Positions 2,965 to 40,848 are shown, counted from the stretch's first letter. The stretch: 64,000 nt of DNA from Patescibacteria group bacterium (GCA_041661505.1 JBAZUF010000004.1:4861-68860); one strand, 5' to 3'. Notes: generated from the letters alone by a model not told the origin. Made by a program: numbers and translations.

Positions 2965-4899
2965 ATGCCGAAGACGGCTTTCCAAAAAATAATTGACGCT
3001 CACGTTAAGAAATTTTTTCCTGACCAAAGGATGGTTTTAGATTTGGATTGGGTATGGGGGCATGAAATTACAACGCCGAACGCCATTTTGGATATGAAAT
3101 CCCGGGGGATAAATTCGGTTTTTAACCCTAACCGGATAAAGCTGATGATTGACCATGTCAATCCGCCAAAAGATACGGCGTCGGCGATTCAGTCAAAAAT
3201 TGTCCGGGACTGGGCGCGGGAAATGGATATTGAATTTTTAGAAGTCGGCCGCAACGGCATTTGCCACGCGGTCATTCCGGAAAAGGGCTGGATCCGGCCG
3301 GGACAAATCGGCATCATGGGCGATTCGCATACCTGCACGCACGGGGCTTTTGGCGCGTTTACCGCCGGCGTCGGGACAACCGACCTGGAGAACGCGCTAA
3401 TTACTGGGCTTTGGATTTGCCCGCCGCAAAAAGTAGTTCGCGTAAATTTTAACGGCGAGCTGGCGAAAAATGTTTTTGCCAAAGATTTGATTTTGGTTTT
3501 GATAAAAAAAATCGGGGTCAAAGGCGCGGCTAACGCGGTACTGGAATTCGGCGGAACTGCCGTGAAAAATATGAGCATGGAAGGGCGGATGACAATCGCC
3601 AACATGGCAATTGAAGCCGGTGCTAGCTCGGGCATGATGATGACGGATGAAAAAACCATCGAATACCTTTGGCCGACTTTGAAGGATGAATTTAAAAATA
3701 GAAAAGAAGCTCTGGCTGATCTGTCAAAATGGAATAGTGACGCGGATGCGAAATATGATCAGGTAATTGATATGGATGCCAGTAAACTGGCGCCGGTAAT
3801 AACTGATAATTTTTCCCCGGAAGACGTCCATTCGGTTAAAGAATTGGCTGGCAAAAAAATTGACCAAGTCTATATCGGCTCCTGCACCAACGGAAGGATT
3901 TCCGATTTAAGGATTGCCGCCGGCGTGTTTAAAGCTATGGGAAAACCGGTACATAAAAATATCCGGTGCATCATCGTGCCGGCTACGGCGCATATTTACG
4001 GCCAGGCTTTGCGCGAAGGGTTAATCGAAATATTTTTACAAGCCGGCTGTTTAATAAGCGCTCCGACTTGCGGCGCTTGCCTGGGGATGTCAAATGGAGT
4101 AATCGCGCCGGGCGAAGTATGCGTTTCAACAACCAACCGCAATTTTCCCGGACGGATGGGAAAGGGCGGGATGGTCCATCTGGCTTCGCCAATAACCGCG
4201 GCTTTAGCGGCAGTGGATGGAAAAATTACCGAGCTGGGTATTGAACTTGGAGAAAAAGTTGAAAAATTTGTTTCTTCCATAATTAAAGACGGGACGCCTA
4301 TGTCTTTAACCGGCTGGAAAGAAAAAAAGGCCGGGCCAGTTGATTATAAAGCCATGCTGAAAAACATAGGCAATGGGGAAGAAAAAGATTTTTCCGGGCC
4401 AGCCGGCTATGCGCCGATAAAAAATATTGATACCGACCAAATTATACCGGCGCGATATTTAACCGAAACCGATAAAGCTGAACTGGGAAGGCATTGCCTG
4501 GAAGACGCTCAATTCAGCGCCGAAGAGAGAAAAATAATTTTAGAATCGCAAATTTTAGTAGCCGATGAAAATTTCGGCTGCGGTTCAAGCCGCGAGCACG
4601 CCCCTTGGGCCTTGGAAGCTAACGGCATAAGATGCGTTATTGCTCCGTCTTTCGCCCGGATTTTTTATAACAACATGTTTAATAATGGATTGCTCTGCAT
4701 TGAACTCCAGCCGGAAGAAATAAGTGAATTGATGGAGGTAAAGCCTAATAGCCTGGAAATTGACTGGAAGAATGGCGTTGCCAAAACGGAAAAAGGGAAG
4801 CAATACAAATTCAGCCTGTCTGATTATCAAAAAGAATTAATTAAAAATGGCGGCAGTGCCGGCTATATGCTAAAGCTGGCCGCGGATATTAATATTTAA
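2965..4899 (+). CDS. leuCD: 3-isopropylmalate dehydratase, fused large and small subunits
   Basis: 644 aa. The N-terminal aconitase-type LeuC part has GDSHTCTHGAFG and GSCTNGRISD. The C-terminal LeuD swivel part has IDTDQIIPARYL and GCGSSREHAPWAL. Confidence 0.9.
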   Translation: MPKTAFQKIIDAHVKKFFPDQRMVLDLDWVWGHEITTPNAILDMKSRGINSVFNPNRIKLMIDHVNPPKDTASAIQSKIVRDWAREMDIEFLEVGRNGICHAVIPEKGWIRPGQIGIMGDSHTCTHGAFGAFTAGVGTTDLENALITGLWICPPQKVVRVNFNGELAKNVFAKDLILVLIKKIGVKGAANAVLEFGGTAVKNMSMEGRMTIANMAIEAGASSGMMMTDEKTIEYLWPTLKDEFKNRKEALADLSKWNSDADAKYDQVIDMDASKLAPVITDNFSPEDVHSVKELAGKKIDQVYIGSCTNGRISDLRIAAGVFKAMGKPVHKNIRCIIVPATAHIYGQALREGLIEIFLQAGCLISAPTCGACLGMSNGVIAPGEVCVSTTNRNFPGRMGKGGMVHLASPITAALAAVDGKITELGIELGEKVEKFVSSIIKDGTPMSLTGWKEKKAGPVDYKAMLKNIGNGEEKDFSGPAGYAPIKNIDTDQIIPARYLTETDKAELGRHCLEDAQFSAEERKIILESQILVADENFGCGSSREHAPWALEANGIRCVIAPSFARIFYNNMFNNGLLCIELQPEEISELMEVKPNSLEIDWKNGVAKTEKGKQYKFSLSDYQKELIKNGGSAGYMLKLAADINI

Positions 4900-4900
4900 T

Positions 4901-6058
4901 ATGGCTAAAAAAATAATCGCATTAGTCGAAGGCGACGGGGCTGGCCCGGAAATGATGCATGAAGCCTGCCGGATAGCGGTTGCCGCCGCCAAAATGGACG
5001 GGATAGAAATTGAATTCGAAAAAACCCCGATGGGCTGGAATGCTTATCATGAACATGGCGATACCTTGCCCGAAGAATCCTTTGAAAAAGCGGTTCGCAT
5101 CGGAACTATTTTTTTCGGCGGCGTCGGCGATCCGAAGTTTGATAAAACCATAGGAATGGAAAAACCGGAAATGAGGCCGGAAGCCCGGGCGCTTTTGGCT
5201 TTAAGGAAAGAAATGGGTCTGTTTTTAAATTTTCGGCCGATTATTTATTATAAATCGCTTGAAGCGCTCGCTAACGTAAAACCGGAAACTATTCCCGAAG
5301 AAGGAGTAAAACAAATCTGGATCCGTTATTTATTGGAAGACAGCTATTTTGGCAATGCCGATTTAATGGACGAGGTGCCGGAAAAGGTGCGGCAGAAAAT
5401 CGGGCTAAAGATGAAAAAAGATGTTTGCCTGGAGGATGAGATAGTCTGCGACCTGGCTTATTATAAAAAATCCACGCTGGAAAAATATATCCGCGCCTGC
5501 TTTGCCTCTGCCCGCGAAATGAAACTGCCCTTAATTTCGATAGACAAGGCCAATGTCATGGCCCGCTATGATTTTTGGCGGAAAATCGCGACGAAAATCG
5601 GCGCCGAAGAATTCCCGGACGTGGAGCTTATCCATCAACTGGTCGACTCGGCCAATTCCATGCTTTTTACGCCGGCCAAATTGCATGGAGTTATCGCCTG
5701 CGGGAACGAGCATGGCGATATCTTATCGGACGGCGCGGCCGCGGCTTTGGGCAGTATGGGGCTCATGTGTTCTTCGGCAGTTAATCCTGATACGGGCCAG
5801 GCAATGTTCGAGTCCGGGGCCGGAACCGCTCCGACTTTAGCCGGCCAGGATAAGGCAAATCCTTTAGGCCGGATTTTAACCGGAGCGTTGATGCTTCGGC
5901 ACATTGGAGCAAAAAAAGGCGCAACTGCCATCGAAGAAGCTGTTAACCGCGCATTGTCAGAAGGCTGGCGCACCGGCGATTTGTTTACAAAAAAAGATGA
6001 CCCGGCCAAACTTTTAGGTACGCAAGCGATGGGGAAAAAAGTTTTGTCATATTTATAG
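4901..6058 (+). CDS. leuB: 3-isopropylmalate dehydrogenase
   Basis: Isocitrate/isopropylmalate dehydrogenase family (GDGAGPEMM, NEHGDILSDGAAA). Operon context supports the call. Confidence 0.9.
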   Translation: MAKKIIALVEGDGAGPEMMHEACRIAVAAAKMDGIEIEFEKTPMGWNAYHEHGDTLPEESFEKAVRIGTIFFGGVGDPKFDKTIGMEKPEMRPEARALLALRKEMGLFLNFRPIIYYKSLEALANVKPETIPEEGVKQIWIRYLLEDSYFGNADLMDEVPEKVRQKIGLKMKKDVCLEDEIVCDLAYYKKSTLEKYIRACFASAREMKLPLISIDKANVMARYDFWRKIATKIGAEEFPDVELIHQLVDSANSMLFTPAKLHGVIACGNEHGDILSDGAAAALGSMGLMCSSAVNPDTGQAMFESGAGTAPTLAGQDKANPLGRILTGALMLRHIGAKKGATAIEEAVNRALSEGWRTGDLFTKKDDPAKLLGTQAMGKKVLSYL

Positions 6059-6102
6059 ATCGTAACGCCTGGCGGAAGATGTCCTTTTTAGCCGGCAAGG
6101 CC

Positions 6103-6131
6103 TTGACAGCGGTAAAGGAATAAAATATAAT
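6103..6131 (+). promoter_or_regulatory. consensus promoter TTGACA-17-TATAAT
   Basis: Both hexamers are perfect with a 17-nt spacer. The predicted start is about 6138 and the mini-ORF ATG is at 6140. Confidence 0.7.
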
Positions 6132-6139
6132 ATTTATAT

Positions 6140-6238
6140 ATGCTTAACCTGGCAAGAAAAATCGTATTGATTGTCGTAGAGGTAGTAGTCATGGTAATGA
6201 CTCCTTTTCGCGTTTGCCGGGTTAGAGTAAGAGCATAA
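6140..6238 (+). CDS. Val/Ile/Leu-rich leader peptide MLNLARKIVLIVVEVVVMVMTPFRVCRVRVRA
   Basis: 32 codons with 10 Val, 2 Ile and 3 Leu, including the run IVLIVVEVVVMV. The mRNA is nearly leaderless, and the 3' part of the ORF forms an antiterminator arm. Confidence 0.7.
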   Translation: MLNLARKIVLIVVEVVVMVMTPFRVCRVRVRA

Positions 6239-6287
6239 AAAGAAAAAAAGCTAAGATGAACCCCCGGCAAACAAGCCGGGTTTTTTT
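6212..6287 (+). terminator. attenuator: antiterminator 6212-6221:6263-6272; terminator cccggc-aaacaa-gccggg plus T7
   Basis: gtttgccggg is the exact reverse complement of cccggcaaac. The terminator stem is 6263-6268/6275-6280, followed by ttttttt at 6281-6287. Confidence 0.7.
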
Positions 6288-6670
6288 GTAAGATGTTCTT
6301 TTGTAGACGGGTGGGCTAATTATGATAACGCGCCTGAAATGGCAAGCGAGCTAATCGTTTTTCGCTTCGGGCGCGTTAAGTAATTGTTTCCTTCGCGGCA
6401 GTCCTGGCGTGCGGCAAGCGACAAAATCGCTTCCAGCAGACGGCGACAGAATCGCCTCTCAATTTTAGCACATAGGGCAAAAACCCGAACAGGCATTTTC
6501 CTGCCAGGCTCTTTCCCGCAAGGCTTTTTTACAAGAGCTAACGCACCCGTAACAATATGGTGTTTCCAAAAGTTTGGAAGCATCCGGGGGGTCTATAGAT
6601 TGCAGATTGATTTATAGATCCCCCTCCTTCCTTTTTCATAATTTAATTAAATATTTAGCCAATTTTAGTC

Positions 6671-6699
6671 TTGACATATGGGCCAAAAAGCACTACTAT
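6671..6699 (+). promoter_or_regulatory. promoter TTGACA-17-TACTAT
   Basis: Perfect -35 hexamer, 17-nt spacer, and a 4/6 match at -10. The predicted start coincides with the ATG at 6706. Confidence 0.5.
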
Positions 6700-6705
6700 T
6701 ATCAT

Positions 6706-6759
6706 ATGATAACCAGACCGCAAAATATTTTATTGGTAAACTTGATTCTACCCACCTAG
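6706..6759 (+). CDS. second branched-chain leader peptide MITRPQNILLVNLILPT
   Basis: 17 codons, 8 of them Ile/Leu/Val. The spacing from the promoter implies a leaderless mRNA. It lies 110 nt upstream of the first ilv-cluster gene. Confidence 0.45.
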   Translation: MITRPQNILLVNLILPT

Positions 6760-6795
6760 ATGGCGGTTTTCCAGCATGGATAAAAGATAAAAACT

Positions 6796-6819
6796 GCCAC
6801 ACTAAAAGGTGGCTTTTTT
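6796..6819 (+). terminator. weak hairpin gccac/gtggc followed by T6
   Basis: 5-bp stem, 8-nt loop, and tttttt at 6814-6819. The upstream cccacc (6751-6756, the end of the mini-ORF) can pair with ggtgg (6808-6812). Confidence 0.4.
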
Positions 6820-6869
6820 AATATAGCGGGCCGTTTAAAAAGCCCGGGGAGAGAAAAAAACATAAAGAT

Positions 6870-8720
6870 ATGACCATCCAAAACGGGACAGTAAAATTTT
6901 ATAAGTTAAAATGCGTTCGATGCGGCGCTGTTTGGGATGAAAAAGAGACTTCGTCCGCCTGCTTAAAATGCGGCGACGCGCTGGAAGCCCACTACGACTG
7001 GGAGTTTATCAAATGCCGTTTAAACCAGTTCAATCTGAAATATACGCCGATTTCCGCCACCAAATATTTGAATTTTTACCCAATTTTGGATTTAAAAAAA
7101 TTAGTTACTTTAAATGAAGGCGGGACTCCCCTTCGAAAATCAAAAAAAATCGCCAAACGGCTGGGACTGGAAAACCTTTATTTTAAGGATGAAACTTCCA
7201 ACCCGACCGGCGGTTTTAAAGACCGGGGGACTATGGTGGAAATAACTAAGGCGCTTGAGATGGGAGCCAAAGCGGTGGTTGTGGCTTCCACCGGAAATAT
7301 GGCCGCTTCGGTTTCGGCTTATGCCAGTCAGGCGGGTATTCCGGCTTACATCGTCGTCCCCGAAGGAACGCCGATTGGAAAACTCTCCCAAACTTTGGCT
7401 TATGGCGCCCGGGTCATCCAAGTCCGCGCCACTTATTCGGAATGCGCGAAACTGGCCGAAGAAATAGCGAAAAAATACGGATTTTATTTGGCCGGTGATT
7501 ATGTTTTTCGGGGCGAGGGGCAGAAATCGCAAGGCTATGAAATTGTCGAACAATTATCCTGGCGCGCGCCGGACTATCTAATCGCGCCGATCGGCTGCGG
7601 GACCAATATCGCGGCGATTTATAAAGGCATAAAAGAATTTCACGATCTGGGCTTTATCGATAAATTGCCGAGAGTCATCGGCGTCCAGCCCGAAGGCGCC
7701 AATACCGTAGTCGACGCCTATAACCGCCGGTCAACGAAAATAAATCCAATTGCCAAGCCCAAAACAATCGCTTCGGCCGTCGCCGTCGGCTACCCTTTAG
7801 ACGGTTTAAAAGTTCTGCGCGATATTAAAGAATCAAAAGGCATGGCGATTAGCGTGAATGACGAAGAGATCTTAAACGCGGAAAAAGAACTGGCTTACGA
7901 GGAATCGATTTTTGTCGAACCGTCGGCCGCGCTTTCGCTGGCCGCCTTGAAAAAAATGTGTTCGAAAAAAATCGTCGGGAAAAATGAAACAGTGGTCTGC
8001 GTTTTGACCGGAAACGGGCTAAAAGATCCGGTAACCATGCTGAAAATTCTCCCATCGCCTCCGTCAATCGAGCCGAAACTCTCGGAAGTCGACCATTATT
8101 TGAAAATGAAATTATATAACATCCAGGCCACGGTCGAAAAAGATAAAGCGGAAATCCTCTTTAGCAAAGCGCCCGGTTTAGCCCAAATAAAAAAAACGGT
8201 GCAAAAGAAGTTCGGCCTGGACTTAACTAAAATTTATCTGGACGCTATCCACGCTGAAGTGAAAGAATTTTTTAATAAAGAAGAAAAAATGAGAAAATCG
8301 GATTTGCAGCACATCATTGAAGCTAATTTAAAAACCGATCCCAAGGCGGTAAAAATAATCAAAGTCGAAGATTTTAAAGTGAGCACTTCAAAAGCCGCTA
8401 AGGCCGAAGCCCAGGTTTGCGTAAAAATCGCCGAGAAACGCATCTGCCGGGTGAATTCTTTCGGCGTGGGGCCGGTGGACGCGATTATGAGAGCGATCCG
8501 CGAAGTCATTAAAAAAGAAAAACTGCCCAATTACTGGCTCATTAATTTTGACGTGAAAATCGACAGCAAAGGAACCGACGCGACGGTGGAAGTTACTATG
8601 GAATTAAAAGACGAAGCCGATAACAAAGTTATCTCAACCGCCGCTTCGCCGGACATTATTGTCGCTTCGATTGAAGCGTTTGAACGGGGATATAATATTC
8701 TCTATAATAAGAAAAAATAA
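6870..8720 (+). CDS. thrC: threonine synthase fused to a C-terminal LeuA-type (LeuA_dimer-like) regulatory domain
   Basis: N-terminal Zn ribbon (CVRCG...CLKCG). The PLP-lysine motif NPTGGFKDRG and ASTGNMAAS are typical of ThrC. The C-terminal ~200 aa (FGVGPVDAIMRAIREV...ASPDIIVASIEAFERGYNIL) resemble the regulatory domains of the LeuA and CimA proteins in this window. Confidence 0.8.
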   Translation: MTIQNGTVKFYKLKCVRCGAVWDEKETSSACLKCGDALEAHYDWEFIKCRLNQFNLKYTPISATKYLNFYPILDLKKLVTLNEGGTPLRKSKKIAKRLGLENLYFKDETSNPTGGFKDRGTMVEITKALEMGAKAVVVASTGNMAASVSAYASQAGIPAYIVVPEGTPIGKLSQTLAYGARVIQVRATYSECAKLAEEIAKKYGFYLAGDYVFRGEGQKSQGYEIVEQLSWRAPDYLIAPIGCGTNIAAIYKGIKEFHDLGFIDKLPRVIGVQPEGANTVVDAYNRRSTKINPIAKPKTIASAVAVGYPLDGLKVLRDIKESKGMAISVNDEEILNAEKELAYEESIFVEPSAALSLAALKKMCSKKIVGKNETVVCVLTGNGLKDPVTMLKILPSPPSIEPKLSEVDHYLKMKLYNIQATVEKDKAEILFSKAPGLAQIKKTVQKKFGLDLTKIYLDAIHAEVKEFFNKEEKMRKSDLQHIIEANLKTDPKAVKIIKVEDFKVSTSKAAKAEAQVCVKIAEKRICRVNSFGVGPVDAIMRAIREVIKKEKLPNYWLINFDVKIDSKGTDATVEVTMELKDEADNKVISTAASPDIIVASIEAFERGYNILYNKKK

Positions 8721-8721
8721 T

Positions 8722-9624
8722 ATGGAGACCACAAAATACATCTGGCAAAACGGAAAATTGGTAAATTGGGAAGACGCTAAAATCCATGTCTTAAGCCACT
8801 CGCTCCATTACGGCTCGGGGGTTTTTGAAGGCATCCGGGTTTATGAGACGAAAAAGGGCCCGGCGATTTTTCGCCTCCCAGAGCACGTGGACCGGTTTTT
8901 TTACTCGGCTAACGCGATGAAAATGAAAATGCCCTGGACTAAGGATGAGTTTAAGGCCGCCATAATTGAAACCGTGAAAAAAAACGATTTGAAATCGGGC
9001 TATATCCGGCCCCTGGCTTTTTACGGCTACGGCGAGCTTAGGATCAGCCCGCTAAAATGCCCGGTCGAAGCGATTATCGCCGCCTGGCCCTGGGGAAAAT
9101 ATTTATCGGCCGACCCGATTAAGGTAAAAGTTCCGGACTACATAAGAATTCATCCTAAGTCATCAATAGCAGACGCGAAAATTTGCGGCCATTATGTCAA
9201 TTCAATCCTTTCCTTTTTAGAGGTGGAAGCGGCCGGCTACCACGAAGCGCTTTTACTCGACTTTGAAGGAAACATCGCCGAAGGTCCGGGAGAAAATTTT
9301 TTTCTTGTGTCCGGCGGAAAATTGGCGACCCCAAAACTGGGAAATATTTTAGCGGGAATTACCCGGCAGTCGATTATTGAGCTTGCGGGCGATTTGGGAT
9401 ACGCGGTGGAAGAAAAAACAATTACGCTTGACGCCGCGATAGCGGCGGATGAATGCTTTTTTACCGGAACGGCGGCTGAAGTAACGCCGATCGGATCTAT
9501 TAATGATTGCCTGATTGCCGGCGGAGCCTTTGGCCCGATTACCCGGCGTTTTAACGACGAGTTTATGAAAATCGTTTCCGGGGAAAATGAAAAATACGAA
9601 AAATGGTTAACATACGCGAATTAA
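8722..9624 (+). CDS. ilvE: branched-chain amino acid aminotransferase
   Basis: Class IV aminotransferase (LHYGSGVFEGIRVYE, FTGTAAEVTPI). The start was chosen at METTKYIW, 1 nt after the thrC stop. Confidence 0.9.
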   Translation: METTKYIWQNGKLVNWEDAKIHVLSHSLHYGSGVFEGIRVYETKKGPAIFRLPEHVDRFFYSANAMKMKMPWTKDEFKAAIIETVKKNDLKSGYIRPLAFYGYGELRISPLKCPVEAIIAAWPWGKYLSADPIKVKVPDYIRIHPKSSIADAKICGHYVNSILSFLEVEAAGYHEALLLDFEGNIAEGPGENFFLVSGGKLATPKLGNILAGITRQSIIELAGDLGYAVEEKTITLDAAIAADECFFTGTAAEVTPIGSINDCLIAGGAFGPITRRFNDEFMKIVSGENEKYEKWLTYAN

Positions 9625-9641
9625 TTTTGAAACTGCCTCTT

Positions 9642-11261
9642 ATGAAACTGCCATCAGAAAAATTAAAAAAGGGAATTGCCACTATGCCGCACCGGGCGCT
9701 CTTGCGGGCTGACGGCTTGCGCGGCGCGGATTTTAAAAAGCCTTTTATCGGCGTGGCTGATTCTTATAACGATATTATTCCCGGGCACATTCATCTGCGC
9801 GAGCTGTCAGAAGAGGTGAAGCGGGGAATCCGCGATGCCGGCGGCGTGCCGTTTGAGTGGGGCGTACCGGGGGTTTGCGACGGCATTGCCATGCACGTCG
9901 AAATGCGCCTGTCACTGCCTAGCCGGGAGCATATCGCCGACAATATAGAAATCATGGTGCTGTCTCATAGCCTGGACGGCTGGGTTGGCGTAACTAACTG
10001 CGACAAAATCACGCCCGGAATGCTAATGGCGGCCGGGAGGCTTAATCTTCCGGCGGCAATTTTAACCGGCGGGCCGATGAAGGCGGGAATCGTGAATGGA
10101 AAAAAAATGGACGTGATTTCCGATTTTGAGGCGGTAGGGCAAATTGAAGCCGGAAAATTATCCAAAAAAGAGGCTTTGAAAATTGAATGCGAATCCTGCC
10201 CGGGCGCCGGGAGCTGCGCCGGGCTTTTTACCGCTAATTCTATGGCGGCCATGACCGAAGTTTTAGGCATGTCAGTAACGGGCTCTGCCACAACGCTCGC
10301 CCTGGATCCGAAAAAAAAGAAACAAGCTTATGAAACCGGCCGGCGCATTGTGGAACTGGTAAAAAGGAACATTAAACCAAAAGATATAATGACCAAAAAC
10401 GCGTTTTTAAACGCAATAAGAGTGGACATGGCTATCGGCGGCTCGACCAATACGGCCCTGCATTTGCCGGCCATTGCCAAAGAATGCGGAATTAAGCTGG
10501 AGCTCGGGCTATTTGACCAGGCCTCCCGGCAAACTCCCAATATTTGCCATATTCGGCCGGCCGGGCCTTATGTTATGGAAGAACTGGATCAGGCCGGAGG
10601 CATCCCGGCGGTGTTAAATCGCCTGAAAAAATACTTAAAGCCAGCCATAACTATTAATAAAAAGAATATTTTAAAAATTGCCGAAGAAGGAAGGGTGCGG
10701 AATGAAAAAGTAATAAGGCCGCTTTCGGACCCGTTCTATAAAGAAGGCGGCATCGCGGTTTTAAAAGGGAATTTAGCGCGGACTTCGGTAGTAAAACAGA
10801 CCGCGGTCGAACCGGAGATGCTGAAAATTACCGGGCCGGCCAAAGTTTTTTCCGGCGAGCAGGCAATTTTAAAAGCCGTGGCCCGGAAAAAAATTAAAGA
10901 CGGCGACATTATCGTAATTAATTTTATGGGTCCGGCCGGCGCGCCGGGCATGCCGGAAATGCTTACGCCCACGGCCGCCATATCCGGCGCCGGATTAAAG
11001 TGCGCGCTGATTACCGACGGCCGTTTTTCCGGCGGAACTCGGGGGGCGGCTATCGGCCATATTGAACCCGAAGCTTTTCATGGCGGAGTAATCGGCATTA
11101 TAAAAGACGGCGACCTGATTGAGATTGATATTCCCAAAAGAAAATTAAATGTGGCGCTAAGCCGCGCGGAAATTAAAAAGAGGAAGAAGAATTTAAAAAT
11201 TCCTAAAAGAAAAATGACCAAGATGCTGGAAAAATACCGAAAGGATAACAAAAAAGCCTGA
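9642..11261 (+). CDS. ilvD: dihydroxy-acid dehydratase
   Basis: IlvD/Edd family (CDKITPGMLMAA, CPGAGSCAGLFTANSM, ITDGRFSGGT). The start at MKLPSEKL avoids overlap with ilvE; 9603 is an alternative. Confidence 0.9.
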   Translation: MKLPSEKLKKGIATMPHRALLRADGLRGADFKKPFIGVADSYNDIIPGHIHLRELSEEVKRGIRDAGGVPFEWGVPGVCDGIAMHVEMRLSLPSREHIADNIEIMVLSHSLDGWVGVTNCDKITPGMLMAAGRLNLPAAILTGGPMKAGIVNGKKMDVISDFEAVGQIEAGKLSKKEALKIECESCPGAGSCAGLFTANSMAAMTEVLGMSVTGSATTLALDPKKKKQAYETGRRIVELVKRNIKPKDIMTKNAFLNAIRVDMAIGGSTNTALHLPAIAKECGIKLELGLFDQASRQTPNICHIRPAGPYVMEELDQAGGIPAVLNRLKKYLKPAITINKKNILKIAEEGRVRNEKVIRPLSDPFYKEGGIAVLKGNLARTSVVKQTAVEPEMLKITGPAKVFSGEQAILKAVARKKIKDGDIIVINFMGPAGAPGMPEMLTPTAAISGAGLKCALITDGRFSGGTRGAAIGHIEPEAFHGGVIGIIKDGDLIEIDIPKRKLNVALSRAEIKKRKKNLKIPKRKMTKMLEKYRKDNKKA

Positions 11262-11297
11262 ATTATTTTTGATTATATTCTACCATGTTAAATTTAT

Positions 11298-13007
11298 ATG
11301 ATCGGAGCTGACGTATTAATAAAATCATTACTGGAAGAGGGAGTCGAGGTAATCTTCGGCTATCCGGGAGGGGTAACCATACCTTTGCATGACCGGCTGG
11401 CTTTTTATCCGAAAATAAGGCACATCCTTCCAAGAAACGAGCAGGGCGCGGCTATGGCGGCTGATGCTTATTTCCGCGTTACCGGCAAGCCGGGAGTCTG
11501 CCTTTCGACCTCCGGACCGGGCGCGACCAATTTAATTTCCGGCATCGCCAACGCTTATATGGACTCAATCGGCGTGGTGGCCATCACCTGCCAAGTTTCC
11601 ACCAAAATTTACGGCACGGACGCTTTTCAGGAAATAAAAATGACCGAGCTTACTAAAGCTATTACCAAGAAGAATTATTTTGTTAAAGACGTAAAAGACC
11701 TGCCGAAAATAATTAAAGAAGCTTTTTACCTCGCCCGCTCGGGGCGCCCCCGGCCGGTGCATATTGATTTGCCGGTGGACGTTATTAAAGCCGAAGTGAA
11801 GGAATTTTCTTATCCCCGGGACAAGGACGCGGAAGCTTTATCCGGACGGGATTATAAAGTAAGCCGGGAAACGGAAAAAGAAATTGAAAAGGCAGTTAAA
11901 TTAATCCATGAAGCGAAAAAGCCGATTGTTATCGGCGGCCATGGTATAATTTTGTCGGGCGGATCAGAAGAGTTTAAAGAATTTATAGAAGCCAATGAAC
12001 TGCCGTTTGTTACGACGCTTTTGGGAATAAGCGTTTTGCCGGATAAGCATCCTTTAAATTTCGGCATGGCCGGAATGCATGGCATGGCTTACGCCAATTT
12101 GGCGGTGCATAGCGCTGATCTTATTATCGCCCTGGGAACCAGGTTTTCCGACCGGATTACCGGGAATCTTGAGCATTACGCCAAGCGGGCTAAAGTAATC
12201 CACTTGGATATTGACGCGAGAGAAATCGGAAAAAATGTTAAGGTGGACGTTCCGCTTATAGGCGACGCCAAAAGCATATTAAGGCTAATGAACAAAAAAT
12301 TGGCCGGATATAAAAGAGAGCGCAAAAGCCGGCGCTGGGTCGATCAAATCTGCACCTTAGAAGAAAGGACCAGCCTTGATAAAATTAAAACTGAAGCCAA
12401 GCTGAAAAGAACCGGGCATATTTTTGCCTTTGAAGTGATTGAAGAAATTTCTAAACAAGCGGCCAAAAATGCAGTCGTCGTTTCGGATGTCGGGCAAAAC
12501 CAGATGTGGACGGCGCATTACTTTGACTATACTTATCCCGGCCAATTTTTGTCTTCCGGCGGCTTGGGCTGTATGGGCTACAGCCTGCCGGCGGCGGTAG
12601 GCGCGCAAACCGGCAAGCCCGGCGCCCAGGTTTGGTCAATTATGGGCGACGGGGGACTGCAGATGAATATTCAGGAGCTGGGGACGATAATGGAACAAAA
12701 ATTGCCGATAAAGATTATTGTTTTAAATAACGGGTTTTTGGGCATGGTGCGCCAATGGCAGGAATTGTTTTTTAAGAAAAATTATATGTCTACGCCGCTT
12801 TGCAATCCCGATTTTATCGAAGTCGCGAAAGCTTACGGCATCGAAGCATATAGGATTACCAAACTTGATCAGGTGGCGCCGATGATAAAGCGGGCGGCGG
12901 CGGGAAAAGAGTCGATTTTTCTTGAGTTTGCTATCGAGCCGGAGGCTAATGTTTTTCCCATGGTGCCGCCGGGGCAAGCTTTAAGAGATACGTTAATTTG
13001 TAAATAA
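11298..13007 (+). CDS. ilvB: acetolactate synthase large subunit
   Basis: ThDP enzyme (GYPGGVTIPLHD, GLGCMGYSLPAAVGA, GDGGLQMNIQEL). Confidence 0.9.
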   Translation: MIGADVLIKSLLEEGVEVIFGYPGGVTIPLHDRLAFYPKIRHILPRNEQGAAMAADAYFRVTGKPGVCLSTSGPGATNLISGIANAYMDSIGVVAITCQVSTKIYGTDAFQEIKMTELTKAITKKNYFVKDVKDLPKIIKEAFYLARSGRPRPVHIDLPVDVIKAEVKEFSYPRDKDAEALSGRDYKVSRETEKEIEKAVKLIHEAKKPIVIGGHGIILSGGSEEFKEFIEANELPFVTTLLGISVLPDKHPLNFGMAGMHGMAYANLAVHSADLIIALGTRFSDRITGNLEHYAKRAKVIHLDIDAREIGKNVKVDVPLIGDAKSILRLMNKKLAGYKRERKSRRWVDQICTLEERTSLDKIKTEAKLKRTGHIFAFEVIEEISKQAAKNAVVVSDVGQNQMWTAHYFDYTYPGQFLSSGGLGCMGYSLPAAVGAQTGKPGAQVWSIMGDGGLQMNIQELGTIMEQKLPIKIIVLNNGFLGMVRQWQELFFKKNYMSTPLCNPDFIEVAKAYGIEAYRITKLDQVAPMIKRAAAGKESIFLEFAIEPEANVFPMVPPGQALRDTLICK

Positions 13008-13107
13008 TTATTAATTTAAGTTATTGTTTTTAATTTTTCATTTTGCGAGCATTTAAAAAATTAATTACAATTAATAAACATTAAAATATTCTAATAAAAA
13101 AAATACT

Positions 13108-14157
13108 ATGGCAAAAATTGATTTTGGAGGAGTAGTAGAAGAGGTGACGACCAGGGAAGAATTTCCTTTGGAAAAGGCGCGGGAAGTGCTGGCTAATGAA
13201 GTGGTGGCCGTTATCGGCTACGGCGTCCAGGGGCCGGGGCAGGCTTTAAATTTGAAAGACAACGGCATTAAAGTAATTGTCGGACAAAGAAAGCCCGGCG
13301 CTTCCTGGGACAAGGCTTTAGCGGATGGTTTTAAACCGGGAGAAGATTTGTTTGAAATTGAAGAAGCCTTGGAAAAGGGAACGATTATTTGCTATCTTCT
13401 TTCCGACGCCGGGCAAATCACTCTTTGGCCGACTGTTAAAAAACATTTGACCAAAGGCAAGGCCCTTTATTTTTCCCACGGCTTTGGAATAACCTACAAA
13501 GACCAAACCAACATCATTCCGCCGGCTGACGTGGATGTTATTTTAGTCGCCCCAAAAGGCTCGGGGACTTCGCTCCGCCGCTTGTTTGTCGCCGGCAAAG
13601 GGCTTAACTCAAGCTACGCGATTTTCCAGGACGCTACCGGCCGGGCGGCCGATCGGGTTAGGGCTTTGGGCATTGCCGTAGGATCGGGATTTTTATTTCC
13701 CACTACGTTTGAAAAAGAAGTCTATAGCGACTTAACCGGGGAGCGCGGAGTTTTAATGGGCGCTTTGGCCGGCATTATGGAAGCCCAGTACAACCTGTTG
13801 CGGAAGATGGGGCACTCGCCGTCCGAAGCCTTTAATGAAACGGTTGAAGAAGCGACCCAGAGCCTAATCCCTTTAGTGGCGGAAAACGGGATGGATTGGA
13901 TGTATGCTAATTGCTCTACGACTGCCCAGCGCGGAGCCCTGGACTGGCGCCACGAATTTCGAAAGGCGGTGGAACCGGTTTTTGAAAAATTATACGGCCG
14001 GGTAAAAAACGGCGAGGAGTGCCAGGTGGTTTTAAAAGCCAATAGCGATCCGGATTATCGGGCAAAATTAAATAAAGAGCTGGAAGATATGCGCAATTCG
14101 GAATTATGGCAGGCCGGAGCGGCGGTTCGCGCCTTGCGCCCGGAGAGGCAAAAGTAA
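13108..14157 (+). CDS. ilvC: ketol-acid reductoisomerase
   Basis: Class I KARI (VIGYGVQGPGQALNLKDNG, SHGFGI, ERGVLMG). Confidence 0.95.
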   Translation: MAKIDFGGVVEEVTTREEFPLEKAREVLANEVVAVIGYGVQGPGQALNLKDNGIKVIVGQRKPGASWDKALADGFKPGEDLFEIEEALEKGTIICYLLSDAGQITLWPTVKKHLTKGKALYFSHGFGITYKDQTNIIPPADVDVILVAPKGSGTSLRRLFVAGKGLNSSYAIFQDATGRAADRVRALGIAVGSGFLFPTTFEKEVYSDLTGERGVLMGALAGIMEAQYNLLRKMGHSPSEAFNETVEEATQSLIPLVAENGMDWMYANCSTTAQRGALDWRHEFRKAVEPVFEKLYGRVKNGEECQVVLKANSDPDYRAKLNKELEDMRNSELWQAGAAVRALRPERQK

Positions 14158-35355: not shown

Positions 35356-35384
35356 TTGACAAGTTCTAGCCTATCCGGTAATAT
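35356..35384 (+). promoter_or_regulatory. promoter TTGACA-17-TAATAT
   Basis: Perfect -35 hexamer. The ATG at 35391 is exactly 7 nt after the -10 hexamer, giving leaderless geometry. Confidence 0.6.
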
Positions 35385-35390
35385 ATAAAC

Positions 35391-35477
35391 ATGAGAAAAT
35401 TTACCGTTTCCACAATTACCATGAAGATGACCGGCATTATTATGACCGGGAATTTAATGTGGACGGTAAAGCTATAA
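35391..35477 (+). CDS. Thr/Met/Ile-rich leader peptide MRKFTVSTITMKMTGIIMTGNLMWTVKL
   Basis: 28 codons with 6 Thr, 4 internal Met and 3 Ile. The 3' end of the ORF is one arm of an antiterminator. Confidence 0.6.
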   Translation: MRKFTVSTITMKMTGIIMTGNLMWTVKL

Positions 35478-35531
35478 AGTCAAGTTAGCGAATTGAAATA
35501 AGCAGCCGTCCACACCCGGACGGCATTTTTA
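35460..35531 (+). terminator. attenuator: tggacgg(35460-35466):ccgtcca(35506-35512) versus terminator gccgtcc/ggacggc plus aTTTTT
   Basis: Terminator stem 35505-35511/35518-35524 with T tract 35525-35530. The alternative 7-bp pairing uses the W-T-V codons of the leader ORF. Confidence 0.65.
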
Positions 35532-37081: not shown

Positions 37082-38656
37082 ATGCCAAAAGGAGTAAAGA
37101 TTTACGATACAACCTTGCGCGACGGGACCCAGGCGGAGAATTTCAGCCTGACGGTTTCCGATAAAATAAAGATCGCCTTAAAGCTTGATGATTTAGGCCT
37201 GCATTATATTGAAGGCGGCTGGCCGGGTTCTAACCCTAAGGACGCGGCTTTTTTTAATGAAATAAAAAAGCACGAATTGAAAAACGCGGTTATTGTTGCT
37301 TTTGGCTCGACTCATCATCCGGCGGTTTTAGCCGAAGATGACTTGAACCTGAAAGCCTTGGCCGATTCCGGCGCGAAAGCCGTAACAATTTTTGGCAAAG
37401 CCTGGACCGTGCAGGTAAAAGAAGCTTTGAATATCCCGCTGGAAAAAAATTTGGAAATAATTTTAGAAAGCTTAAGAATTTTGAGGCCGCGGGTTAAAGA
37501 GCTTTTTTTTGACGCCGAGCATTTTTTTGACGGTTATAAGGCGGATTCGGAATATGCTTTGGCGGTTTTATCTAGGGCCTTAGAAGGCGGGGCTGATTGT
37601 TTGGTGTTATGCGATACTAACGGCGGAAGCATGCCAAGCGATATCCGGCAAATTATCACTAAAGTCAAAGAAAGGTTTCCTGCGGCGGAATTAGGCATCC
37701 ATGCCCATAACGATTCCGAGCTGGCGGTAGCCAACACCATGACGGCGGTTAAGCTCGGAGCAGTCCAGGTTCAGGGAACGATTAACGGGATTGGCGAACG
37801 CTGCGGAAACGCGAATTTATGCTCAATAATTCCCAATCTGATTTTAAAAAAGGGTGTTATGTGCCTGCCGAAAGAAAATTTAAAAAAATTATCGGCCGCG
37901 AGCCGCTTTGTCAGCGAATTGGCGAATTTAAATCCTAACCGCTATCAGCCGTATGTCGGACAAAGCGCTTTTGCCCATAAGGGCGGAGTGCACATTAACG
38001 CCGCCTTGAAAAATCCGATGACTTATGAGCATATTGATCCGGCTTTGGTCGGGAACATCCGGCGCATTTTAGTTTCCGATCTTTCCGGCCGCTCGGCTAT
38101 AGCGAAAAAATTGGAAGACTTTGGCATTAATTTATCCAAGACTGATCCGGCGGCCTTGAAAATTTTAAATGAAGTAAAGGAATTGGAAAACCACGGCTAT
38201 CAGTTTGAAGCGGCCGAAGCCAGTTTTGAGCTTTTGGCCAGCCGCCTGCTTGGGAAAAACAAAAATTATTTCCAGTTGGTTGATTACCGGGTGACTGACT
38301 GCAAGGCCGGAGAAGGGGAGGCGCCGTCCATCGAGGCAACAGTAAGGATTAAAGTAAAAGATCGCGAAGAGCATAGCACGGCCAAAGGCGTCGGCCCGGT
38401 TGATGCCCTAAACAATGCTTTAAGAAAGTCTTTGGAAAAAATTTATCCCCAGCTAAACGGCATGAAGCTTACGGATTATAAGGTCCGGGTATTGCCGACG
38501 AATGACGGTACGGCGGCCCGGGTAAGGGTATTAATTGAATCCTGCGACGATAAAGACTACTGGGGCACGGTCGGGGTATCAGTTGATATATTAGAGGCAA
38601 GCTGGATGGCTTTAGTCGATAGTTTTAATTACAAATTGTATAAAGAAGAAAAATAA
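37082..38656 (+). CDS. cimA: (R)-citramalate synthase
   Basis: IYDTTLRDGTQAE, the YIEGGWPGSNPKD signature of the CimA branch, HAHNDSELAVANT, and a C-terminal regulatory domain GVGPVDALNNAL...VDILEASWMAL. Confidence 0.8.
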   Translation: MPKGVKIYDTTLRDGTQAENFSLTVSDKIKIALKLDDLGLHYIEGGWPGSNPKDAAFFNEIKKHELKNAVIVAFGSTHHPAVLAEDDLNLKALADSGAKAVTIFGKAWTVQVKEALNIPLEKNLEIILESLRILRPRVKELFFDAEHFFDGYKADSEYALAVLSRALEGGADCLVLCDTNGGSMPSDIRQIITKVKERFPAAELGIHAHNDSELAVANTMTAVKLGAVQVQGTINGIGERCGNANLCSIIPNLILKKGVMCLPKENLKKLSAASRFVSELANLNPNRYQPYVGQSAFAHKGGVHINAALKNPMTYEHIDPALVGNIRRILVSDLSGRSAIAKKLEDFGINLSKTDPAALKILNEVKELENHGYQFEAAEASFELLASRLLGKNKNYFQLVDYRVTDCKAGEGEAPSIEATVRIKVKDREEHSTAKGVGPVDALNNALRKSLEKIYPQLNGMKLTDYKVRVLPTNDGTAARVRVLIESCDDKDYWGTVGVSVDILEASWMALVDSFNYKLYKEEK

Positions 38657-39190: not shown

Positions 39191-39219
39191 TTGACATTTG
39201 GTAGGCTCTTCGCTACAAT
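39191..39219 (+). promoter_or_regulatory. promoter TTGACA-17-TACAAT
   Basis: Perfect -35 hexamer and a 5/6 match at -10. The mini-ORF ATG at 39229 is 9 nt after the -10 hexamer. Confidence 0.6.
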
Positions 39220-39228
39220 GGAATCAAT

Positions 39229-39309
39229 ATGAATTTAAACCAAGTCAAAATTGGATCCCCCATTTCCGGCGGTTGTGGCGGTAGTGGCTCATGCATTGAG
39301 CAATTTTGA
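39229..39309 (+). CDS. Gly/Ser/Cys-rich leader peptide MNLNQVKIGSPISGGCGGSGSCIEQF
   Basis: 26 codons with 6 Gly, 4 Ser and 2 Cys in the block SGGCGGSGSC. The stop codon lies inside an antiterminator arm. Confidence 0.55.
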   Translation: MNLNQVKIGSPISGGCGGSGSCIEQF

Positions 39310-39398
39310 GGATGGTTTAAAAAGAAGAACATGCATAGGTTAGCAACAAAGCTAAAATAAGACACAAGCCATCCTCAAAGGGATGGCTTTAGCGTTTT
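39307..39398 (+). terminator. attenuator: tgaggatgg(39307-39315):ccatcctca(39369-39377) versus terminator agccatcc/ggatggct plus a T-rich tail
   Basis: The 9-bp and 8-bp perfect stems share nt 39369-39374. The tail ttagcgtttt is at 39389-39398. Confidence 0.6.
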
Positions 39399-39448
39399 AG
39401 GGGTATAATGCAGTGAACGCTCTTTTTGAAAATTTGGGAGGAATAGCC

Positions 39449-39856: not shown

Positions 39857-39954
39857 TCCGCGTACCGGAGGTGTTTTCTAGAAGGACAAGCTTTGCCTTC
39901 AGGGAACGCCTCCGGTTCCTAATTCCTTATTTAGAATCAGATTTATATACCAGA

Positions 39955-40848
39955 ATGCTTTACAATAATATCCTAGACACAATCGGCAATACGCCGATGG
40001 TAAAAATTAATAATTTGTTCAATAAAGAAGGCGTTAATATTTACGCTAAAATTGAAGGCGTTAATCCGGGCGGAAGCATTAAAGACCGGATTGCCCTAAA
40101 AATGATCGAGCAGGGAGAAAAGGAAGGGAAGTTAAAAAAAGGAAAAACGATTATTGAGGCGACTTCGGGAAATACCGGAATCGCCCTGGCCATGATTGGA
40201 AGTTTAAAAGGCTACGCGGTGGAAATTGTAATGAGTTCGGCTGTTTCGCCGGAACGGGTAAAAATGATAAAGGCTTTTGGCGCTAGTATAATTTTAACCG
40301 GCTCGAACAAAGGGACGGACGGGGCTATAATGAAAGTAAAGGAAATGGTAGCCGGCTGCCCGGAAAAATATTTTAATCCGAACCAATTCTCGAATGAATA
40401 TAATAAAATCGCCCATTATGAGACAACCGGTAAAGAAATTTGGAAAGATATGGGCGGTAAAATCGACTATTTTGCCGCCGCTATCGGTACTTCGGGAACA
40501 CTGATGGGAGTCGGCGCTTATTTAAAAAAAATGAATCCGAATATCAAGGTGGTTTCGGCCGAACCTGTTTTAGGGCATTATATCCAGGGATTAAAGAATA
40601 TGCAGGAGGCGATTGTTCCCGAAATTTATAATCGCGAAAAGCTGGATGATGTTATAATGATTAATACAGAGAAAGCATTTGAAATTTCAAGGGAAATCGT
40701 AAAAAAAGAAGGGATATTTGTCGGCATGTCTTCGGGAGCGGCTATGCTCGCGGCGCTGGAAATCGCCAAAAAAATTGATAAAGGGAATATTGTTACGATT
40801 TTTCCGGACCGGGGAGAAAAATATTTAAGCACAAAGTTGTTTGAGTAA
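39955..40848 (+). CDS. cysK: cysteine synthase (O-acetylserine sulfhydrylase)
   Basis: IGNTPMVKINN, NPGGSIKDRIA (PLP lysine) and TSGNTGIALA. The start was chosen at MLYNNILD. Confidence 0.9.
   Translation: MLYNNILDTIGNTPMVKINNLFNKEGVNIYAKIEGVNPGGSIKDRIALKMIEQGEKEGKLKKGKTIIEATSGNTGIALAMIGSLKGYAVEIVMSSAVSPERVKMIKAFGASIILTGSNKGTDGAIMKVKEMVAGCPEKYFNPNQFSNEYNKIAHYETTGKEIWKDMGGKIDYFAAAIGTSGTLMGVGAYLKKMNPNIKVVSAEPVLGHYIQGLKNMQEAIVPEIYNREKLDDVIMINTEKAFEISREIVKKEGIFVGMSSGAAMLAALEIAKKIDKGNIVTIFPDRGEKYLSTKLFE

Follow-up and report, generated by a model that had tools for sequence, protein, structure and literature searches.

Positions 6103-6287 of the 64,000-nucleotide (nt) stretch of Patescibacteria DNA analysed here (GCA_041661505.1 JBAZUF010000004.1:4861-68860; hereafter the window) probably form a ribosome-mediated transcription attenuator, in which translation of a leader peptide would respond chiefly to the availability of charged tRNA-Val and secondarily to that of charged tRNA-Ile and tRNA-Leu. 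A sequence-only reading of the window had already proposed an attenuator at this site. That proposal is supported by three competing RNA helices, by a fold that switches when the RNA under a ribosome is masked, and by conservation in a related locus, L026. The module lies on the same strand as a set of Val and Ile biosynthetic genes and upstream of them; in L026 it adjoins the first of these genes via a conserved spacer. We call it the distal module, since a second, proximal attenuator lies between it and the genes of the window. As judged from sequence, the module has every hallmark of the leader-peptide attenuator class: a short open reading frame (ORF) upstream of the operon and enriched in codons for the end products of its pathway, an intrinsic terminator between this ORF and the structural genes, an antiterminator that excludes the terminator and switches with ribosome position in silico, and a 1:2 anti-antiterminator that appears both in the centroid fold and in the consensus fold with L026. 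Statistics and conservation together exclude a chance origin of these features. The parts of the module, counted from the first nucleotide of the window, are:

6103-6131, plus strand: promoter P1, with -35 TTGACA (6103-6108), a 17-nt spacer and -10 TATAAT (6126-6131)
6138-6140, plus strand: predicted transcription start, placed from the 8-nt gap between the -10 element and the ATG, leaving a 5' untranslated region (UTR) of 0-2 nt
6140-6238, plus strand: leader-peptide ORF, 32 codons and TAA, MLNLARKIVLIVVEVVVMVMTPFRVCRVRVRA
6141-6156, plus strand: region 1, the 5' arm of the 1:2 anti-antiterminator (codons 1-6), from the centroid fold and the RNAalifold consensus with L026
6161-6196, plus strand: control codons 8-19, I V L I V V E V V V M V (7 Val, 2 Ile, 1 Leu), from the codon list
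6179-6206, plus strand: internal hairpin within the control codons, core AGTCAT (6187-6192) and ATGACT (6197-6202)
6212-6221, plus strand: region 2, GTTTGCCGGG, the 5' arm of the antiterminator, which also pairs with region 1
6263-6272, plus strand: region 3, CCCGGCAAAC
6263-6280, plus strand: intrinsic terminator, CCCGGC-AAACAA-GCCGGG (6 G-C pairs, 6-nt loop), followed by a run of seven T residues (T7) at 6281-6287

The leader ORF is exceptional in its composition. It encodes 10 Val, 2 Ile and 3 Leu residues, which bears out the 15 branched-chain residues out of 32 counted in the sequence-only reading. All six frames of the window together contain 275 ORFs of 20-60 codons that begin with ATG, and this one has the highest density both of Ile/Leu/Val (10/13) and of Val (7/13); across the genes of the window, 6.1% of residues are Val. 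An exhaustive search of 1.8 billion representative proteins for homologues of the 32-residue peptide found only the peptide itself. On the opposite strand, an ORF (6088-6270) and a promoter-like site (6155-6127) were also considered, and were set aside for want of supporting context.

P1 is the sole 12/12 match to TTGACA-17-TATAAT in the 64-kb window, where matches with at most one mismatch number six against 0.32 expected. The -10 element is followed after 8 nt (ATTTATAT) by ATG 6140, exactly as the sequence-only reading had described. That reading had further called the ORF essentially leaderless, and the geometry behind this part of the claim holds up. The gap is identical, at 8 nt, in the window and in L026, and it measures 6-11 nt in 15 of the 16 leader ORFs found across the clade, two further attenuator-like modules of the window included. 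The support is limited to this geometry, and the start position itself is predicted; on these grounds the leader ORF is predicted to be leaderless or nearly so. The genome hardly uses Shine-Dalgarno (SD) sequences: only 5 of the window's 40 genes have even a weak GGAG/GAGG/AGGA-like match, and the sequence upstream of starts is A/T-rich. A missing SD at the leader ORF is for this reason uninformative by itself, and on a long transcript ribosomes might also initiate internally, at the leader of the proximal attenuator. An internal ATG at 6191, preceded by GAGG, was tried as an alternative start and rejected; the GAGG is GATG in L026, and SD sequences are scarce in any case.

The RNA downstream of P1 can form three mutually exclusive helices. 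The 1:2 helix joins region 1 to 6212-6229 (-28.4 kcal/mol, including the hairpin that it encloses), the 2:3 antiterminator helix reaches -20.8 kcal/mol and shares CCCGGC with the terminator, and the 3:4 terminator helix reaches -12.8 kcal/mol. The reverse complementarity of regions 2 and 3 is exact over 10 base pairs (bp) (100%), and the terminator, with its two arms and T7 tract, lies where the sequence-only reading had placed it. The folding energy of the 153-nt RNA has a z-score of -3.8 against shuffled sequences. In silico, the antiterminator becomes the minimum-energy fold when the nucleotides that a ribosome stalled in the Val codons (8-19) would cover are withheld from pairing; with those covered by a ribosome at the stop codon withheld instead, the terminator forms. 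The internal hairpin is a candidate RNA-polymerase pause hairpin that may synchronise ribosome and polymerase. A further CCGGCAA at 6092-6098, which complements region 2, was considered as an extra anti-antiterminator acting on read-through from the upstream leu operon; it is absent from L026, and we discarded it.

Comparison with L026 and L027 shows which parts of the module are constrained. In these loci the first protein of the operon is 82% identical to that of the window, the same leuCD-leuB-thrC-like order is found, and the same distal module is present. The L026 promoter, TTGACA-17-TACAAT, retains all six positions of the -35 and five of six of the -10 hexamer, with the 17-nt sequence between them diverged, and it is again followed by 8 nt (ATTAATAT) and an ATG. 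The orthologous leader ORF again has 32 codons (MLNLTKKTLLVLVDVVIIMMTIKHVCRVRVRA). Its first four codons are identical to those of the window (12/12 nt), as are 30 of 32 positions from region 2 through the stop codon; the arms GTTTGCCGGG and CCCGGCAAAC are unchanged, an additional base in the loop is the only change in the terminator, and the T7 tract is present. In the centre, 13 of 20 codons change the encoded amino acid, and the stretch is still rich in Val, Leu, Ile and Met: codons 9-18 of L026 include four for Val, three for Leu and two for Ile, and codon 22 adds a third Ile. L026 also retains the internal hairpin, with the 5' arm displaced by 3 nt. This pattern, in which composition is conserved over sequence in the centre, reads as a leader-peptide signature. 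As a neutral reference we took the fourfold-type third codon positions of leuB, the thrC-like gene and ilvE, which are 39-50% identical; because the module as a whole is 74% identical, it is taken to be under purifying selection.

These features suggest the following course of events. RNA polymerase would start at P1, 0-2 nt 5' of the AUG, and a ribosome would load on the 5'-terminal AUG and translate the 32-codon ORF. With Val plentiful, the ribosome would move through region 2 toward the stop codon as the polymerase synthesises regions 3 and 4; 3:4 would then pair, and transcription would end at the T7 tract to give an RNA of ~148 nt. With Val-tRNA scarce, the ribosome would stall in codons 8-19 and leave region 2 free to form the 10-bp 2:3 helix, which would block the terminator and let the polymerase read through. 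If the leader were not translated, 1:2 would pair and termination would be the default. Read-through RNA would cross a spacer of ~380 nt, meet and, we infer, pass an Ile/Leu-rich attenuator that has its own promoter, and then enter the thrC-like gene, ilvE, ilvD, ilvB and ilvC.

The surroundings of the module are laid out as follows, in window coordinates:

1339-2946: leuA-like gene, upstream of the module
2965-4899: fused leuCD gene, upstream of the module
4901-6058: leuB-like gene, upstream of the module
6288-6669, plus strand: conserved non-coding spacer (L026 counterpart 3581-4000)
6671-6819, plus strand: second (proximal) attenuator, with promoter P2 TTGACA-17-TACTAT (6671-6699), ORF 6706-6759 encoding MITRPQNILLVNLILPT, and terminator GCCAC-loop-GTGGC (6796-6813) followed by a run of six T residues (T6)
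6870-14157, plus strand: regulated operon, assigned with NCBIfam and kept in order in relatives, comprising the thrC-like gene (6870-8720; a PALP enzyme with a fused LeuA allosteric domain), ilvE, ilvD, ilvB and ilvC

The intergenic region between leuB and the thrC-like gene thus measures 811 nt and holds the distal attenuator, the spacer and the second promoter, leader and terminator. An identical contig is present in ENA ERZ27249449 and SRA SRR18595301, and exact look-ups gave identical copies (L011 and L035). Rfam yielded no T-box, riboswitch or known leader in the whole window at gathering thresholds, and only noise at E<=10 in 5900-7000 of the window and 3040-4010 of L026; the best leader family, matched in L026 only, was Trp_leader with 16.8 bits, below its cutoff of 41 bits. 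Between the leuB stop (6058) and 6263 there is no convincing terminator. Because the 44 nt from leuB to the distal promoter also hold no clear one, the leu operon of the window probably ends at the attenuator's terminator; the corresponding interval in L026 is 340 nt long and carries three terminator-like hairpins (3055-3395). The first gene of the regulated operon encodes a ThrC-like pyridoxal-phosphate enzyme with an N-terminal Cys-rich motif and a fused LeuA_dimer domain, at the position expected for ilvA. Such fusions are frequent in Peregrinibacteria and Gracilibacteria, where sources annotate them as threonine synthase; the protein may be a feedback-regulated threonine deaminase or synthase.

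The sequence-only reading had cautioned that about 580 nt, with another promoter and leader, separate the module from the first ilv-cluster gene. The distance is indeed 583 nt, from 6287 to the thrC-like ATG at 6870, with a second promoter, leader and terminator in between. The concern that this raises is largely resolved: ~380 nt of the gap are conserved spacer, and ~200 nt are the Ile-rich attenuator usual in this clade. In L026, the ~420 nt after the terminator align in blocks with 6288-6640 of the window and then lead directly into the thrC-like ATG. Here the module and spacer are the sole attenuator and P1 is the sole strong promoter before the thrC-like gene, and leuB has terminators of its own. 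Because L026 has no other attenuator or strong promoter at this place, transcripts from the distal module must be able to serve the operon.

The spacer itself may add to the regulation. It is 67% identical to its L026 counterpart over the aligned columns, against the 39-50% of synonymous sites, and it is non-coding: no conserved ORF was found between the two sequences, whose conserved blocks switch frame and whose insertions and deletions are not multiples of 3. Its predicted structures include a long hairpin (~6327-6379) and two hairpins of the form GCGA-loop-TCGC (6418-6430 and 6443-6455). The terminal hairpin spans 17 bp (6586-6624) and shows compensatory changes; the pyrimidine tract downstream of it is rich in CCTCC and could pair with a conserved GGGTGGG at 6310-6316. 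The GCGA-CA(A/G)AA-TCGC hairpin, present in two copies, occurs nowhere else in the fetched loci. It is possible, although we do not consider it likely, that the leader is composite, the attenuator being a first stage and the spacer a second cis-regulatory RNA that responds to a metabolite, a protein or a tRNA. The final hairpin and pyrimidine tract might, with the same reserve, be its expression platform. Such an arrangement would be compatible with the Val-sensing attenuator. The non-coding conservation and the consensus fold, with its long hairpin, two GCGA-CAGAA-TCGC hairpins, compensated terminal hairpin and GGGTGGG/CCTCC pairing, speak for it. The fold has five compensatory pairs, but these come from two sequences, which makes the covariation anecdotal; Rfam has no match, and the conservation could instead reflect DNA-level sites or elements of RNA stability or processing.

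The proximal attenuator belongs to a much more widespread family. Relatives of the locus were fetched via the operon's first gene, and homologous proximal modules precede the same operon in more than 15 of the loci. These comprise L001/L012 at 83% identity (L001 at 2685-2846), L028 at 75% (3803-3965) and more than 10 loci at 68-72%; L002-L007, L013-L020, L030, L032, L034 and L036 are among the loci with a proximal module. Members of this family are mainly Ile-rich. Their stop codon overlaps a GGTGG antiterminator arm, their terminator is GCCACC-loop-GGTGGC, and in most of them the -10 element ends 6-11 nt before the ATG. The distal type, in contrast, was seen in two lineages only; in 24 further loci with a relative of the first gene, most of them with the upstream region, neither the distal module nor the spacer motif was found outside L026/L027. 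The two types share their operon, their organism group and the design of promoter, ATG, short ORF, antiterminator and terminator, and their sequences are unrelated. Both are present in the window, the distal one alone in L026 and the proximal one alone in most relatives. Some relatives have no attenuator: in L033 (2479-2501) the thrC-like gene starts 21 nt after leuB, and in L037 (2405-2501) it starts 95 nt after a RidA-like gene with no leader ORF. Regulation of this operon thus appears fluid within the clade.

We propose, from these sequences, that two attenuators of complementary amino-acid specificity stand in series ahead of the window's operon. The proximal leader of the window, MITRPQNILLVNLILPT, contains a single Val, against seven in the control region of the distal leader, and the proximal leaders of the closest single-attenuator relatives, L001 and L028, contain VVVV (MIKKLPKNLDIVVVVSLIIPT and MTEKLPKILDIVVVVSLIIPT). 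In L026, which has one leader only, Val, Leu and Ile are represented in balance. The amino-acid content fits a division of labour between the modules, a suggestive pattern only, drawn from very few genomes.

Several observations weigh against the Val-sensing attenuator. Among the other lineages, the module is present only in L026/L027, and the pairing arms are invariant in both lineages, so that covariation cannot be read from them. Region 1 lies upstream of the control codons, unlike in the trp paradigm, where it lies over or after them, and the 1:2 helix has two mismatches in L026 and is weaker there. A ribosome at the stop codon, with a footprint of ~6221-6248, scarcely covers region 2; the model consequently needs kinetic coupling and a 1:2 helix that re-forms behind the ribosome. 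Downstream, the second terminator (6796-6819) stands between the module and the genes of the window; equilibrium folding, which ignores co-transcriptional folding, gives its hairpin a probability of 0.62 in RNA that starts at P2 and of 0.08-0.49 in longer RNAs. The spacer hairpin at 6586-6624 is flagged as terminator-like in the window. Finally, a weak promoter-like match (9/12) at homologous spacer sites (6528-6556 in the window, 3856-3885 in L026) could feed the operon without P1.

In a second reading, the module is structurally intact but decoupled or a relic, and no longer controls the ilv operon in this organism. No RNA from P1 would then extend beyond 6287 or, at most, the second terminator. 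All that the module contributed would be a short RNA and a terminator or insulator for leuA-leuCD-leuB, and P2 and the proximal attenuator would do the regulating. The missing terminator after leuB fits such a role, and the proximal attenuator with its own promoter suffices in most relatives. The short P2 transcript folds into 1:2 plus terminator, the default of an untranslated proximal leader. We nonetheless regard this reading as unlikely. P1 is a perfect consensus promoter, and the module and its 380-nt spacer are under purifying selection. In L026 they lead directly into the operon, with separate terminators already in place after leuB. Moreover, the proximal leader of the window has lost the Val run kept by single-attenuator relatives, as would be expected if Val sensing had moved to the distal module.

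A more elaborate scheme is comparably improbable in our view: a division-of-labour OR gate built from two promoters and leaderless translation, with the spacer as an undescribed structured regulatory RNA of Patescibacteria. Here efficient translation of either leader ORF would require a 5'-terminal AUG. RNA from P1 would have to pass a Val-dependent gate at the first terminator; the second leader would then lie inside this RNA and be translated poorly, and the sequence upstream would bias its fold away from the terminator. Transcripts from P2 would be gated by Ile and Leu alone.

It is very improbable that the ORF instead encodes a functional small hydrophobic protein, such as a type I toxin or a small membrane peptide: although its 32 residues form a hydrophobic core and an Arg-rich tail, its C-terminal VCRVRVRA is conserved with two synonymous changes, and some pipelines call it as a gene, 13 of its 20 central residues (65%) differ in L026 where the neighbouring proteins are 82% identical, its hydrophobic stretch of ~14 residues is broken by a conserved acidic residue (E/D), its conserved ends coincide exactly with the RNA arms, its location, promoter and terminator fit an attenuator, and it has no homologues among the 1.8 billion proteins searched. 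The peptide shows neither the conservation beyond RNA constraints nor the membrane-spanning segment expected of such a protein.

The proposed Val-sensing attenuator is one of several modules of similar design in the window. The leuA-like gene at 1339 is preceded, at 1146-1280, by a Leu-rich leader ORF (MKIKSLKLNLLLLLPLKRAAILC) with pairing between GGGCGGC and GCCGCCC and by a weak terminator with a T6 run; the promoter of this leader is not clearly placed. A second module, at 35357-35530, has TTGACA-17-TAATAT followed after 6 nt by ATG 35391 and a Thr/Met/Ile-rich ORF (MRKFTVSTITMKMTGIIMTGNLMWTVKL). In this module TGTGGACGG pairs with CCGTCCACA as the antiterminator, and the terminator is GCCGTCC-loop-GGACGGC with five T residues (T5). 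It is located upstream of small ORFs and of a second synthase with HMGL and LeuA_dimer domains (37082-38656; citramalate/isopropylmalate synthase-like). A third, at 39191-39400, has TTGACA-17-TACAAT, 9 nt, ATG 39229 and a Gly/Cys/Ser-rich ORF (MNLNQVKIGSPISGGCGGSGSCIEQF), with pairing between GAGGATGG and CCATCCTC and then GGGATGG and a T-rich terminator. Downstream of it are a 147-aa ORF, a cysteine-synthase-like gene of the PALP type (39871-40848) and genes resembling serA and serC. The recurrence of promoter, ATG, short ORF, antiterminator and terminator across these sites looks like a house style of the clade.

Bacteria of the Candidate Phyla Radiation (CPR) are commonly portrayed as minimal in both metabolism and regulation, and hardly any work exists on how they control their genes. 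A literature search found no leader-peptide attenuation in CPR bacteria within the searchable library. The uncultured Peribacteria-like lineage considered here, represented by a metagenome-assembled genome, keeps a full branched-chain pathway and appears to use translation-coupled attenuation at several operons. A strong promoter that would make the sensor ORF 5'-terminal on its transcript, together with the scarcity of SD sequences in the genome, leads to testable predictions on transcription-translation coupling and on leaderless initiation. The combination of a promoter, 6-11 nt, an ATG, a short ORF of biased composition, and an antiterminator with a terminator may also serve as a signature for regulated operons in uncultured genomes. 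Most likely, the module is a new example of a known mechanism in an unusual phylum, and only the tandem arrangement and the conserved spacer go beyond the textbook.

Attenuators of branched-chain operons offer the nearest comparisons. In Escherichia coli, the ilvGMEDA (ilvL) and ilvBN (ivbL) leaders have 32 codons, with clustered Val/Ile/Leu (ilvL) or Val/Leu (ivbL) codons, a non-regulatory C-terminal tail over RNA arms, mutually exclusive helices and an intrinsic terminator, and the distal module of the window is likewise built. Unlike in the window, the E. coli leaders have a normal 5' UTR with an SD sequence, each operon has only one attenuator, and its first gene follows at a short distance. 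The leader of Corynebacterium glutamicum ilvBNC is the nearest analogue known. As summarised in PMC11857589 (citing Morbach et al. 2000), its peptide IlvL (MTIIRLVVVTARRLP) has 15 codons and no ribosome-binding site, with the start codon 1 nt downstream of the transcription start; the leader forms three hairpins and measures 292 nt from the transcription start to ilvB. Similar ilvB leaders have been predicted across Actinobacteria (PMC1262725). On that summary, the C. glutamicum leader and, as proposed, the distal module are both ribosome-dependent branched-chain attenuators with a Val run, a transcription start at or next to the start codon (predicted here) and no ribosome-binding site; both use the logic of anti-antiterminator, antiterminator and terminator, and both place a long untranslated stretch before the genes. 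They differ in length (32 codons here against 15) and in host (Patescibacteria against Actinobacteria), in that the leaderless start is only predicted here, and in the 380-nt conserved spacer and second complete attenuator that follow the distal module. No sequence is shared between the distal module and the leaders of C. glutamicum, E. coli or Salmonella. Tandem cis-regulators within one leader are further known among T-boxes and riboswitches. The Salmonella mgtCBR leader has two short ORFs and tandem attenuators (PMC3641672). It resembles the window in placing two sensing modules for different signals in series before one operon; in the window, by contrast, each module is a complete, predicted amino-acid attenuator with a consensus-like promoter of its own, and 380 nt of conserved spacer lie between the two.

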